A stretch of DNA of 64,000 nucleotides, taken from contig CAVYTU010000017.1 of NCBI GenBank assembly GCA_963771465.1, forward strand, positions 800,001 through 864,000, read 5' to 3'. Each line of letters begins with the position of its first letter. Positions within the stretch are counted from its first letter, which is position 1. The notes beneath the pieces are model-generated. The model was not told where the DNA came from. It saw nothing but the letters and a program-made list of their open reading frames with translations, and ran no database searches. Below, piece by piece: positions 6,881 through 22,010 of this stretch. Position numbers and translations under genes: made by a program. This DNA comes from an uncultured delta proteobacterium (GTDB lineage: Bacteria; Desulfobacterota; Binatia; UBA9968).

Positions 6881-7006
6881 TCGACCTTTTGGTCGAGGGT
6901 ATCGACCGTTTCGCCGCGCCGTCTCGTAGTTGTCTTCGACCACTCTGAATAATCCCTAGCGATATTGGCTGTCTCCCTGATCCCGATCGCCGGCACGTAA
7001 GCTGCT
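6881..7006 (+). promoter_or_regulatory. Tandem-palindrome enhancer (6881-6917) plus sigma-54 promoter (GG 6992, GC 7004)
   Basis: TCGACCttttGGTCGA-gggta-TCGACCgtttCGCCGC; CGGCACgtaagCTGCT 111 bp downstream. Confidence 0.75.
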
Positions 7007-7049
7007 CTCCTAGTCATTGGGAACAAAAATAGAAAGAAGGTACCTGACT

Positions 7050-7199
7050 ATGAGCCTGCTGTTGTTGATCGTATTAGTTTTATTGCTGGTCGGCGGTTTG
7101 CCTAACTGGGGTTATCACTCGTACGGCTTTGCGCCCTCGGGTGTCGCCGGAACGGTGCTGCTAGTCGTGGTCATTTTGCTTTTGACCGGCCGGCTTTAA
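7050..7199 (+). CDS. DUF3309 small membrane protein
   Basis: LLLIVLVLLLVGGLPNWGYHSYGFAPSG...LLLTGRL. Confidence 0.85.
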   Translation: MSLLLLIVLVLLLVGGLPNWGYHSYGFAPSGVAGTVLLVVVILLLTGRL

Positions 7200-7320
7200 A
7201 GGGATCGAAAACATGGTCGTGCGGATCAGGGTATTACGGCGCAGGGTTCCTGAGGTTACTTGAAATTCTTCAAGTTAGCCTGACTCAACCCTGCTAATCA
7301 GTACAACCGAGGAGGTTGCG

Positions 7321-7548
7321 ATGAAAAAGTTAATGTTGGTGTTAGTGCTCTTGATCGGTGTCAGTCAAAGCGGTTGCGCGTTTTTAGGCGGAGCGGCGCT
7401 GGGCGGTCTCGCGACCGGAGCAGGCTACGAAGTCAACGCGAATAGCCAGATGGGCAAGTTGGAAAGCGATTACAAAGCCGAGAGAATCTCGCGCAGTGAA
7501 TACCTAGCCCGTAAATCGCAGATCGAAAAAGGCTCGATCATCTACTAG
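7321..7548 (+). CDS. Small lipoprotein
   Basis: Lipobox-like SQSGC; RBS GGAGG. Confidence 0.7.
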   Translation: MKKLMLVLVLLIGVSQSGCAFLGGAALGGLATGAGYEVNANSQMGKLESDYKAERISRSEYLARKSQIEKGSIIY

Positions 7549-7555
7549 AGCGATT

Positions 7556-18723: not shown

Positions 18724-18778
18724 CCGGCAAGATCGATCATTCTGGCTGAGCAACTCTTGCAGCCAGAGAGGTAAATCG

Positions 18779-18818
18779 ACAACGACCCCTGGGACCAACC
18801 GGCCCCGGGGGTCGTTGT
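18779..18818 (+). terminator. GC-rich stem-loop between the OmpA and kinase genes
   Basis: ACAACGACCCC...GGGGTCGTTGT. Confidence 0.55.
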
Positions 18819-18855
18819 GCGTCAGCTGCAAATCGTGCCTATGATACTTGCATCC

Positions 18856-20586
18856 ATGAAAAGAGTTTTCCTGCCACGCCACTTCCTTGCGTCTGGTTTG
18901 CTACTTCTCATCTTAGCGTCTCTCTATGTTCTCTTCGAAGCCCAGAGGCTCCAGCAAGACCTCTTGCGCCAGACTGAGGACAAGGGGACGGCATTGGCGA
19001 AGGCCATGGAGACCAGTGTTAAAAACGCTATTGTCGGCAACGCTCTATTGGAGGATTTGATCCGGCAGCGTTTGGTGGATAATGCCCAGCTGATCGATCA
19101 ACTGCTGCTCTCTCGTCATGTCGATCAGGCGATGCTTAACGAGATCAGTGCGATGAACCGCCTGCAAAAAATCGATCTTCTCGATGAGCAGGGCCGGCCC
19201 TGGAAACTCGCCGTACTGCCAACAGTGATAGCCCAGAAAAAAGCCCGAGAAGAAACTATTCAGCCGCAGCGCCCGACGATAAGCTACGCGTGGGGAAAGC
19301 GCTGGCGGTTGCCCACGGAAAAAGCCGACGACAAGACCAGCGAACCGCCGCCCCTCATCAAGGGTAAAGAATTCTGGAAAGGCAGTGCCTTCGGCGTCGC
19401 CGTGGGCGCGCGTAGTTTTCCGGGCATGATCGCGATCCACGCCAACGCCGACTATATTTTCAACTTCGAGAAAGCGATCGGAGTGCAAAGTCAGATCGAG
19501 GATCTCGGCCGCCAATCGGACAGTGAGTTTGTGTCTTTTCTCGATAGCGACCTTAACGTCGTAGCGCATACCGACCCGCGTCGTATCGGACAGCAGGAAA
19601 AAGAGCCGCTGGTTTTGAAAGCCAAAGTCGACCGTCAGCTTTTCACTCAGATCATCGACAGCGGCGGGGGTAAACGGTATCTTGAAGTGGTTAAGCCGGT
19701 GGCGCTCGACGAAGCCAATCTGGGATTCCTTAAGATAGGGTTGTCGCTCGGATCGATGGAAGTCGCCTGGCGCAACAGCCTGCGTGCCGTCGTTATTTTG
19801 GGAATCGCTATTTTAGCCGCGGGCATTCTGGGAATGGCGGCGATTTTCCATAACCAGCACTCGCATCTGCAAGAGGTCAAAGCCCTGGAGGCTGAAGTGT
19901 TACACAGAGAGCGTCTGTCAGCGCTCGGAAACCTGGCGGCGACCGTCGCCCATGAGGTGCGCAATCCGCTCAATGCTATTTCAATGGGACTGCAGCGTCT
20001 CAAGATGGAGTTTCAGCCCGCTGAGGATCGCGATCAATACTCTCACCTAACCGAGTTGTTGCTCGGGGAAGCGCGCCGCATCAACTCCATCGTCGAGCAA
20101 TTCCTTTCGCTGGCGCGTCCCATCGAGATCAAAGCCGAAGCGTTGCCGCTGCAAGAAATCCTAAAAGAGCTAGCCGCGTTACAAGAGAGCCACGCTAAAC
20201 AATCGAACGTGCGGATCCAAGTGATCACCGCGCCGAATCTGCCGCCGCTTACGGCCGACCCCAGTCATCTTACCCAAGTCTTGTTGAACCTCATGCTCAA
20301 TGGTTTGCAGGCGATGCCGCACGGCGGAACATTGACACTGGAGGCGAAAACGTCGAACGGCAATTTTCTCATCGCCGTGACTGATACCGGAAGCGGGATC
20401 GACGCGGAAAACCTGCGGCGAATTTTTGAGCCCTACTTCACGACCAAGACCAAGGGCACCGGTCTGGGGCTGGCGATCTCACGCAGGATTATCGAATCTC
20501 ACGGCGGAACGATTACTGTTAGCAGTGAAGTGGGCCAAGGGTCGCGCTTCGAGATTTCCTTGCCGCTCAACGGTGCGGAGGTGTAA
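18856..20586 (+). CDS. Membrane sensor histidine kinase (NtrB/ZraS type)
   Basis: Two TMs; AHEVRNPLN H-box; N, G1, F and G2 boxes. Confidence 0.92.
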   Translation: MKRVFLPRHFLASGLLLLILASLYVLFEAQRLQQDLLRQTEDKGTALAKAMETSVKNAIVGNALLEDLIRQRLVDNAQLIDQLLLSRHVDQAMLNEISAMNRLQKIDLLDEQGRPWKLAVLPTVIAQKKAREETIQPQRPTISYAWGKRWRLPTEKADDKTSEPPPLIKGKEFWKGSAFGVAVGARSFPGMIAIHANADYIFNFEKAIGVQSQIEDLGRQSDSEFVSFLDSDLNVVAHTDPRRIGQQEKEPLVLKAKVDRQLFTQIIDSGGGKRYLEVVKPVALDEANLGFLKIGLSLGSMEVAWRNSLRAVVILGIAILAAGILGMAAIFHNQHSHLQEVKALEAEVLHRERLSALGNLAATVAHEVRNPLNAISMGLQRLKMEFQPAEDRDQYSHLTELLLGEARRINSIVEQFLSLARPIEIKAEALPLQEILKELAALQESHAKQSNVRIQVITAPNLPPLTADPSHLTQVLLNLMLNGLQAMPHGGTLTLEAKTSNGNFLIAVTDTGSGIDAENLRRIFEPYFTTKTKGTGLGLAISRRIIESHGGTITVSSEVGQGSRFEISLPLNGAEV

Positions 20587-22010
20587 ATGCCCAATCGTTT
20601 TCATATTCTGGTAGTCGACGACGAACCGGTGCAGCGCGAGTTGGTTGGCGGCTTTCTCAAGAAACAAGGCTTTGAAGTGATGCTCGCCGATAGCGCTGAG
20701 AGAGCCTTGGAACTGTTTCGTCAGGACGTCTTCGATTTGGTTCTCACCGATCAAAAGATGGCTAACATGTCGGGCCTGGAACTTTTGCAGGCCGTGCACG
20801 CCATCAATCCTGAAACGCCGGTCATTTTGATTACCGCTTTCGGCACTGTCGAAACGGCCGTCGCCGCCCTCAAGCAAGGCGCTCTCGATTACCTGACCAA
20901 GCCGGTGAATTTGGAGGAGCTGCTTTACCGTATTCAACAGGTGAGCGATCACTATCGAATCATCAACGAGAATCGCGAGCTGCGCGAAGTCTTACAGGAA
21001 CGCCATCGCATCGAAGGAATCATCGGCGAGAGCGGGCCAGATGCTGGAAGTCCTTTCCTTGGTGCGCCGCGTGGCTCCGAGTGAAGCGACGGTGTTGATT
21101 CGCGGCGAGAGCGGCACGGGAAAAGAGCTGATTGCCCAAGCGATTCATTTTGCCAGCCCAAGAGCGCGCGGTCCGCTCGTCAAGGTCAACTGCGCGGCGC
21201 TTCCCGAAGCGCTTCTCGAATCGGAATTGTTCGGCCATGAAAAAGGCGCTTTTACCGGCGCGCATCACTTCGCGCCAAGGGCGTTTTGAGTTGGCCAATG
21301 GCGGAACTATATTTCTCGACGAAATCGGCGACCTTCCTTTGCACCTGCAGGCAAAACTCTTGCGCGTGCTGCAGGAGCGGGAATACGAGAAGGTCGGCTC
21401 CAGCCGTTCGGTCAAGGTCAACGTCAGAATTCTGGCTGCCAGCCACAGACCACTCGAGGATCTCATCAAAGCGGGACAGTTGCGGGAGGATCTCTACTAC
21501 CGGCTTAACGTCGTCACGATTCTCATTCCACCGCTGCGTGAGAGACGCTCGGATCTTTCGCTGCTGATCGATCACTTCCTGCGGCGCTTCGCAGCGAAGA
21601 ACGGCAAGACGATCCGCGGTCTAACCCATGAAGCGCGGGATATTCTTTTACGCTACGACTATCCGGGCAACGTGCGGGAGCTGGAAAATCTTATTGAGCG
21701 GGCCGTGGTTCTTACCCGAGACGAAGTCATCGGCAGCGGTGATTTACCTTTGACTGTCCATGACTCCGAGGCAGAGGACGAGCAAGGAACGAACCTAACG
21801 GTTGCGGTGGAAGCGCTGGAGCGCCGTATGATCAGGGACGCTCTGGCCCGATCCGATGGCGTCCAAACCCGCGCCGCGGAACTGCTCGGAATCAGTGAAC
21901 GGGCGCTGCGGTACAAACTAACTAAATACGGTTTTAGGGAGGAAGCTTCAGATCCTGATTCCGATCTTAAAGTTCAATCTCCAGGGGAAGATGCTGAACC
22001 ACACGATTAA
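20587..22010 (+). CDS. Sigma-54-dependent response regulator (REC-AAA+-HTH; frameshifts near 21040 and 21262)
   Basis: REC domain; [33 protein letters not shown]; Fis-type [21 protein letters not shown]. Confidence 0.9.

Follow-up and report, generated by a model that had tools for sequence, protein, structure and literature searches.

A predicted sigma-54 regulon with tandem-palindrome enhancers in front of envelope- and stress-type operons of an uncultured Binatia bacterium

The textbook case of a tandem enhancer is found in the NtrB/NtrC system at glnAp2, where two dyads ~100-140 bp upstream of a -24/-12 promoter take up dimers of the phosphorylated regulator and nucleate the active oligomer. 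Here we describe a set of paired palindromes with -24/-12 elements, and the adjacent genes for a sensor kinase and an NtrC-family activator, in a 64,000-nt stretch of DNA from an uncultured member of the Binatia (the window; G000:C17:800001-864000, window position 1 being C17:800001). The genes behind these elements overlap with families known from the regulons of SigB, RpoS, or EcfG, namely CsbD, BON/OsmY-like, YtxH, entericidin or glycine-zipper lipoproteins, and superoxide dismutase.

Closest in logic is the ZraSR/ZraP system for zinc-dependent envelope stress in E. coli and Salmonella, which likewise combines a membrane kinase with a sigma-54 activator of REC-AAA+-HTH type. ZraR is reported to activate the sigma-54 promoters of its own operon and of a gene for a small periplasmic protein of the envelope-stress response, and its binding site is listed as not known, so that its motif cannot be compared with the one described here (PMC4987338). 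A precedent in a related lineage comes from Desulfovibrio vulgaris, where the sigma-54 two-component regulators DVU3381 and DVU1419 are assigned to 'envelope stress response' and DVU3305 to 'general stress response', with regulons of one to three operons each (PMC4641369).

We consider it probable that the Binatia elements form a sigma-54 regulon that is run by the two-component system encoded at the right-hand end of the island. It would comprise nine promoters, eight of them heading co-oriented operons of small envelope- or general-stress-type genes, and the activator is predicted to bind at all of them. This reading builds on what was observed directly: the sites and their fixed distance to the -24/-12 elements, the gene families and rpoN, the domains of the two proteins, and the conservation and linkage in relatives.

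Paired palindromes and -24/-12 elements

The four enhancers of the window share one plan, a 16-bp dyad TCGACC-N4-GGTCGA, 5 bp, and a second, usually weaker dyad. Each is followed by a -24/-12 element:

6881..6917, + strand: enhancer 1, TCGACCTTTTGGTCGA-GGGTA-TCGACCGTTTCGCCGC; first dyad perfect; weight-matrix score 47.0
6991..7006, + strand: promoter 1, CGGCACGTAAGCTGCT; GG at +111
9076..9112, + strand: enhancer 2, CAGTCTTTTTGGTCGA-ATGGC-TCGACGATTCGGTCGA; weight-matrix score 36.4
9186..9201, + strand: promoter 2, TGGCACAAATAGTGCT; GG at +111
15187..15223, + strand: enhancer 3, TCGACCGTTTGGTCGA-AACTC-TCGACGCTTTTGCCGA; top-scoring site with a weight-matrix score of 50.2 (43.8 bits with model R1, see below)
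15295..15310, + strand: promoter 3, TGGCACACAACCTGCT; GG at +109
17669..17705, + strand: enhancer 4, CCGACCGTTTGGTCGA-CGTCT-TCGACGCTTTCGCCGG; weight-matrix score 43.1; the site that is kept beside the kinase gene in relatives
17777..17792, + strand: promoter 4, CGGCATAACAGTTGCG; GG at +109

A preliminary description of this DNA had placed enhancers at 6881, 9076, 15187, and 17669, and all four were confirmed directly in the sequence. The 5-bp spacer and the centre-to-centre distance of 21 bp (two helical turns) that it had claimed were found at 4/4 window sites, and remeasuring the GG offsets gave the same 111, 111, 109, and 109 nt. In enhancer 2 the roles of the dyads are swapped: the first is degenerate with only its right half intact, and the second is strong. 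The register assigned to it earlier is nevertheless right, because it preserves the 111-nt distance to the promoter. With up to two mismatches, TCGACC-N4-GGTCGA occurred 15 times in the window as compared to 3.89 +/- 2.11 times in shuffled sequences, and 0/100 shuffles reached 15. Matches with no or one mismatch were restricted to these four sites.

Both strands of the whole 6.9-Mb genome were searched, first for dyad pairs with a centre distance of 21 bp and subsequently with a weight matrix. Nine sites scored 35.4-50.2, while the next best among 13.8 million positions scored 25.2. Eight of them lie on the + strand of C17 (789279, 790714, 797435, 798904, 806881, 809076, 815187, and 817669); they are co-oriented, span 28.4 kb, and end 1.1 kb ahead of the kinase gene. 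Four of these eight fall 1.1-10.7 kb left of the window, and the earlier count of four copies has to be replaced by nine. The site at C17:797435 was not part of the training set of the matrix, yet it was found, and it carries the -24/-12 element CGGCACAACAGTTGCC at +112. The ninth site (C18:26403-26439, corresponding to L002:6403-6439) is inverted relative to its promoter CGGCACGAGCCTTGCG, which is on the minus strand, and lies upstream of a small Arg/Asp/Tyr-rich lipoprotein gene.

Elements of the TGGCAC-N5-TTGC(W) type, with GG and GC 10 nt apart, were present at 8/8 clustered sites and, on the other strand, at the C18 site. In the order of the clustered sites the GG follows the enhancer start by 111, 111, 112, 109, 111, 111, 109, and 109 nt. 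The genome-wide scan, which had been proposed as a check, thus yielded nine sites, eight of them with a -24/-12 element at 109-112 nt. The strict -24/-12 pattern matched the genome 1523 times (both strands) and the reversed sequence 1420 times, so the pattern alone is unspecific; calculated from the 1523 matches, the chance of an element at offsets 109-112 is 4.4e-4 per site. From the usual distance of 12 nt, transcription from promoter 1 is predicted to start near 7017. The genome has a single copy of rpoN (C14:367875-368351, one Sigma54_DBD match with 214 bits, in an open frame of 494 aa). The sigma-54 promoter architecture as first described was borne out in the sequence. The narrow range of the spacing (109-112 nt here, 103-113 nt among relatives) suggests that phasing is required.

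We also considered that the shared architecture might be the trace of repeated promoter-cassette duplication without common regulation. The stretches between enhancer and promoter (70-73 nt) resembled each other at shuffle level (shuffles: mean 0.53, maximum 0.64) with one clear exception, the pair 789279/806881 with an identity of 0.71. Both of these sites head a duplicated DUF3309-lipoprotein-Crp cassette, and their 71% alike spacers would fit such an origin. Two further pairs, 789279/790714 and 809076/815187, were marginally above the shuffle maximum (0.67 each); all remaining pairs were at shuffle level, the genes downstream are unrelated, and other genera and families retain the spacing from enhancer to promoter amid diverged surroundings. 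Duplication without common regulation appears extremely unlikely in view of these data. Judged from the spacers, only the enhancer, the promoter, and the distance between them are preserved, and the sites are not simple copies of each other.

Other dense clusters of -24/-12 elements were seen at C13:150000-240000, C15:480000-570000, and C14:630000-660000, with activator genes inside or next to them at C13:154055, C15:486073, and C15:498488. The genome-wide weight-matrix scan gave no TCGACC element at these hot spots on C13, C15, and C14. This would fit, without proving it, a scheme of one activator and one enhancer word per island.

One more -24/-12 element, TGGCATGGTGTTTGCC, is located downstream of the activator gene at 22540-22555, 70 nt ahead of a gene for a single-domain receiver protein (22625-22984). 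No TCGACC-type enhancer was present in the 200 nt upstream of it. Another -24/-12-like match, CGGCACCCATAGTGCA at 8907-8922, is located between the Crp gene and enhancer 2, which are 430 nt apart, and CCCATAGTGC is repeated 37 nt later. It is preceded by no enhancer, and no gene follows before the next enhancer.

The kinase-activator pair and its linkage to the enhancer

The two genes at the right-hand end of the island are:

18817..20586, + strand: sensor histidine kinase of 589 aa, ZraS/AtoS-like, with a large periplasmic part, HisKA, and HATPase (Pfam)
20587..22010, + strand: NtrC-family activator with REC, sigma-54 AAA+ domain with GAFTGA, and Fis-type HTH (Pfam)

Among the NCBIfam models, the kinase reached 253.5 bits with ZraS (NF007688; cut-off 479), restricted to residues 230-585, and 243.2 bits with AtoS (cut-off 646). 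The Pfam domains of the activator scored 111.3 bits (Response_reg), 108.7 + 120 bits (Sigma54_activat, in two pieces), and 55.8 bits (HTH_8). For comparison with NCBIfam and PDB we used an intact orthologue from a relative (L005:8086-9456). AtoC (NF008469) was its top match with 535.2 bits (cut-off 714), followed by ZraR (NF007689) with 455.7 bits (cut-off 760); ntrC gave 440 bits (cut-off 558.6). Its best PDB matches were NtrC-family regulators and ZraR. By these scores the activator is an NtrC-family response regulator that is close to AtoC and ZraR and belongs to none of these named groups. The genome contains 26 loci with a sigma-54-activator domain and 16 sigma-70-family genes. No duplicate of the recognition helix of the activator was found among the 23/26 loci with a readable C-terminus; the three broken loci yielded no C-terminal stretch.

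To follow the enhancer in relatives, a sequence-only model (R1) was built from the nine sites and run on 61 genomes, including the unpublished G040 with one weak match. It matched in 32/61 genomes (20/30 of the same genus; 25/36 in family f1, 5/5 in f2, and 1/19 in f3, a low count due to a variant with a 6-bp spacer that largely escapes R1). Co-oriented clusters on one contig comprised 11 matches on G025:C17 and 6-9 matches in G031, G023, G019, G020, and G024. A kinase orthologue was present in 43/61 genomes and in 15/30 of the genus. Within the genus, all 15 kinase-bearing genomes carried the motif, as compared to 5/15 of the kinase-less genomes. In 19 of the 23 f1/f2 genomes with a kinase, the motif was located 0.64-2.2 kb upstream of the kinase gene (two of the 19 matches are partial and reported on the other strand of the palindrome). 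In three more f1/f2 genomes the kinase gene is cut by a contig end or lies within 650 nt of it. Among the distinct sites in fetched loci, 23/26 had a -24/-12 element at +103 to +113, of which 22 were found by pattern and one, the variant TGGCCC, by eye. A search of five relatives' genomes with the pattern GTCGA-N{4,6}-TCGAC-NNNN-TT gave matches at control level and missed known sites; the pattern is ill-suited for this purpose.

Inspection by eye covered the six loci in which the kinase orthologue is full-length and the sequence reaches far enough upstream. A dyad pair and a promoter were present upstream of the kinase in 6/6, with a TGGCAC-N5-TGC-type element about 110 nt after the dyad pair; the dyads are separated by 4 bp (L004), 5 bp (L005), or 6 bp (L006-L009). 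In L005 the promoter is followed by the gene for a small secreted protein that is homologous to the N-terminal part of the collagen-OmpA protein encoded behind enhancer 4 in the window. In L006 (8286-9770; NCBIfam 499.4 bits), and likewise in L007-L009 at about 8200-10000, all from a more distant family, the conserved unit opens with a DegP/HtrA protease in place of the small secreted protein. The small secreted protein ahead of the kinase has no Pfam or NCBIfam family. One orthologue showed a sub-threshold match to Metal_resist, the ZraP/CpxP family (E 0.0056, 17.3 versus 29.2 bits), which is probably due to a Gly/Met-rich stretch, and Atlas returned unnamed clusters only, with PepSY at rank 29 (score 0.79); we regard both as leads only. 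Genes behind the relatives' sites are orthologous to targets of the island: DUF3309, the 26-aa peptide, the 65-72-aa membrane protein, the zinc-ribbon protein (behind the same enhancer and promoter in L108), the ferritin-like protein, an entericidin-family lipoprotein, and the secreted protein before the kinase.

The dyads might instead be bound by another regulator, either the Crp/Fnr proteins of the island or one of the ~25 other sigma-54 activators. TCGAC-N6-GTCGA has the 5-N6-5 geometry that we take to be that of CRP-type sites, two Crp paralogues are themselves within the regulon, and the genome offers 26 sigma-54-activator loci. The distribution of Crp does not match that of the enhancer. 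A Crp orthologue was found in 24/36 f1, 0/5 f2, and 0/19 f3 genomes (this count includes the unpublished G010), and f2, which lacks it, has the motif in 5/5 and the kinase in 4/5 genomes. In f3, also without Crp orthologue, the kinase was present in 19/19 genomes, and the variant motif was seen by eye in 4/4 loci with a kinase of 51% identity. Some genomes of the same genus without motif and kinase do have Crp (e.g., G012, G014, G017, G018, and G027), and it was not found in G009, G011, G021, and G032, which carry both. The occurrence of the motif is therefore matched by that of the kinase/activator pair and not by that of Crp. Sigma-54 promoters, moreover, require an AAA+ activator, and no other readable activator locus shares the recognition helix. 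Control by one of these other regulators is quite improbable in our view. The preliminary description had assigned the adjacent pair as cognate regulator by adjacency only; the linkage of motif and kinase in relatives, a recognition helix unlike that of any other readable locus, and the behavior of Crp now support this assignment.

In the mechanism that we propose, the membrane kinase (18817-20586) would sense a periplasmic or envelope signal and phosphorylate the NtrC-family regulator (20587-22010). Regulator dimers would bind both TCGACC-N4-GGTCGA dyads on the same face of the helix, with centres ~128 and ~107 bp before the predicted start. An active AAA+ ring would then assemble, reach the sigma-54 holoenzyme at the -24/-12 element by looping of the DNA, and open the promoter. 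The last promoter, that of enhancer 4, probably reads into the kinase and activator genes and would thereby provide positive feedback. Such positive autoregulation is likely, because the unit of enhancer, promoter, gene, kinase, and activator recurs in relatives and the 94-nt gap ahead of the kinase gene gave neither a terminator nor a promoter match. An envelope origin of the signal is suggested by the targets and by the HtrA or secreted protein that heads the conserved unit. Contigs of the metatranscriptome run X15 cover parts of 17642-21760, and one crosses the enhancer; as assembled contigs with possible DNA carry-over they reveal neither transcription starts nor expression.

Several observations weigh against a regulon run by this pair. 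The distance from site to promoter on C18 is 102 nt from the near end or 138 nt from the far end, which misfits the phasing of the other eight. Neither an IHF-type site (WATCAR-N4-TTR) nor a clear AT-rich bend was found in the eight enhancer-promoter spacers. Five genomes of the same genus have the motif and no kinase match (three of these motif matches are weak, with E above 1e-4), and in G042 no motif match lies next to the kinase. The compared genomes are kin, and the counts overstate their independence. Finally, the activator gene is spread over three frames in this assembly, with two 1-bp insertions near 21034-21039 and near 21262 as judged from a relative with a 78% identical kinase. If these frameshifts were real, the regulon would be silent in this strain.

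The GAFTGA motif, which had been described as intact, is indeed present; no single uninterrupted activator frame was found in the assembly. The collagen-OmpA gene is also in three frames, with frameshifts near 18089 and near 18457. One explanation is that the regulon is real in the lineage and dead in this strain, with true mutations in both genes and the activator a pseudogene. Each of the two genes is hit twice, and neither insertion in the activator gene lies in a homopolymer run. Over 17600-22100 we examined contigs of four runs, three of soil DNA (each from a different study) and one of an RNA library; they are 90-99% alike and possibly derive from other strains. An additional G behind 18089 was present in 3/4 runs (the X4 contig was without it), and 18457 was one base shorter in 2/4 runs. 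In the activator gene, one base was missing at 21034 or 21037 in 3/4 runs and at 21262 in 2/4 runs, where the depth is inflated by activators of other organisms. Each of the four indels is thus missing from contigs of 2-3 of the four independent soil metagenome runs, and the variants are precisely the changes that restore a single frame in each gene.

The orthologues give the same picture. Activator orthologues had open frames of 456-480 aa directly behind the kinase in 5/5 genomes of the genus that were checked, and were also intact in L005 and L006; OmpA-type orthologues were intact with 316 aa in L113 and 301 aa in L117. Breaks occur elsewhere in the assembly as well: 3/26 activator loci, this one included, are in two pieces, one more is partial in a 121-aa open frame, and frame breaks were located at C17:789707-789935 (a split lipoprotein paralogue), C5:30768-31233, C15:486073, and C17:491019-491386. 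The split activator loci and the split lipoprotein paralogue point to a general indel error rate of the assembly, and all nine enhancers and promoters are well preserved. Since independent contigs and intact orthologues lack the insertions, the four indels are likely assembly errors, and the activator is presumably intact in the living cell; we regard a dead regulon in this strain as unlikely. Indel errors need to be considered in any gene calling on this genome.

Predicted target operons

Genes were called by codon-usage score and assigned to families by Pfam. By these calls the island is almost fully co-oriented, and the stress and envelope families named in the preliminary description were recovered:

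Behind C17:789279, + strand: DUF3309, lipoprotein (split here), ferritin-like protein; cassette paralogous to operon 1
Behind C17:790714, + strand: 72-aa membrane protein, PBP1A, FecR/DUF6600 protein
Behind C17:797435, + strand: 60-aa membrane protein, CsbD, low-affinity iron permease
Behind C17:798904, + strand: 26-aa DUF3309-like peptide, 30-aa membrane peptide, lipoproteins, then genes running into the window
626..6745, + strand, window genes after the C17:798904 site: BON 626-937, YtxH-like 983-1285, GT4 glycosyltransferase 1944-3176, Fe/Mn superoxide dismutase 3219-3872, coiled-coil protein 4113-5236, PLD/cardiolipin-synthase-like protein 5372-6745
7050..8647, + strand, operon 1 (Pfam): DUF3309 7050-7199, lipoproteins 7321-7548 and 7556-7951, Crp/Fnr-family regulator 7967-8647
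9258..13353, + strand, behind enhancer 2 (Pfam): glycine-zipper lipoprotein 9258-9587, STAS-MlaE 9786-10937, MlaF 10927-11727, MlaD about 11717-12721, ABC auxiliary lipoprotein 12721-13353
15583..17619, + strand, behind enhancer 3 (Pfam): zinc-ribbon protein 15583-15750, 24-aa membrane microprotein 15850-15924, two proteins without family 16082-16561 and 16786-17376, dodecin 17404-17619
17836..18723, + strand, behind enhancer 4 (Pfam): collagen-OmpA gene; the secreted product combines a conserved N-terminal module with collagen-like repeats and, at its C-terminus, an OmpA domain

The extents of the transcripts are predictions for all sites. Across 6700-22600, scans for sigma-70 promoters (7 versus 8.5 +/- 3.0) and terminators (21 versus 20.0 +/- 5.0) were at shuffle level and are useless for operon limits. 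No other convincing -24/-12 element was found inside 626..6745, and its genes are possible members of the C17:798904 operon, assuming co-transcription. The mla genes begin 199 nt past the glycine-zipper lipoprotein gene and are candidate members of its operon. A search of 6700-22600 against Rfam gave zero matches at E up to 0.1.

The Crp/Fnr regulator of the island has a third copy at C17:286402-287076, which is 83% identical and far from the island. The membrane microproteins encoded at 15850-15924 and C17:799192-799284 are paralogues of 24-30 aa with the consensus ...IVGLVVVVLFVAG.LGLR, and each is encoded by the second small gene after an enhancer and promoter. The leader after promoter 3 (15311-15582) has ~262 nt as compared to ~48 nt in the relative L108. 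It opens with the direct repeat GAACTACAATG at 15319-15329 and 15349-15359 and contains an 82-codon frame with a low coding score, and no Rfam match.

Significance and comparison with known systems

With this island, an uncultured and widespread soil phylum gains a testable regulon with a 37-bp operator, a named activator and kinase, and about nine target operons, together with a conserved core unit of enhancer, promoter, secreted protein or HtrA, kinase, and activator. Obscure targets such as DUF3309, the 24-30-aa membrane peptides, the zinc-ribbon protein, and the secreted module are placed in envelope and stress physiology, because they would be co-regulated with BON, CsbD, YtxH, SOD, Mla, and OmpA-type genes. 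The regulon is also a clean example for the idea that the cell exterior is under the control of sigma-54.

More tentatively, a large part of the general and envelope stress response of Binatia may depend on several parallel sigma-54 modules, instead of or besides one sigma-70-family stress factor, each island having its own enhancer word and a self-amplifying kinase/activator pair. The island described here would be the envelope-sensing module, and the part that ZraP plays for ZraS, that of a periplasmic partner of the kinase, would fall to the product of the conserved first gene, be it the small secreted protein of no known family or, in another family of relatives, DegP/HtrA. We rate this wider scheme as possible and rather doubtful. 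The number of 16 sigma-70-family genes gives no ground for calling a classical stress sigma factor missing.

In the literature searched (supplements not covered), no paper was found on Binatia and sigma-54, nor on CsbD together with sigma-54 and an enhancer-binding protein. Searches on general stress, sigma54, BON, and DUF3309 returned nothing relevant beyond PMC4641369, and Binatia, general stress, and envelope stress are all unmentioned in PMC12316311 (its supplements likewise aside).

Gene sets that are usually tied to SigB, RpoS, or EcfG can stand behind enhancer-dependent promoters: in contrast to those regulons, the Binatia promoters are of the -24/-12 type and need an ATPase activator. 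That stress gene families are wired to RpoN here, as first proposed, is supported by the promoters and families, but it is less unprecedented than had been implied in view of ZraSR and of D. vulgaris, where sigma-54 two-component control of envelope and general stress is described (PMC4641369). Neither TCGAC nor GTCGA occurs in the main text of that paper, figures and supplements being outside this count.

With NtrC at glnAp2 the island shares the two-dyad layout. The half-site in Binatia is TCGACC, which presumably is not the NtrC site, and its targets are genes of envelope and stress functions instead of nitrogen genes. AtoC was the best NCBIfam match of the activator orthologue, below its cut-off, and we take the recognition helix of the activator to resemble that of AtoC; no acetoacetate genes are near the Binatia pair. 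As compared to ZraSR, the Binatia proteins score far under the equivalog cut-offs (253.5 versus 479 and 455.7 versus 760), the periplasmic part of the kinase is much larger, and the regulon has nine promoters instead of the two divergent ones of Zra. The first gene of the operon also differs, its product having no Pfam family in f1/f2 and being DegP/HtrA in f3. The best reading of these similarities and differences is that the system in the window is ZraSR/AtoSC-like and yet distinct. The enhancer word and the gene set are new and the layout of the island is unusual, while the mechanism of activation is the known textbook one.

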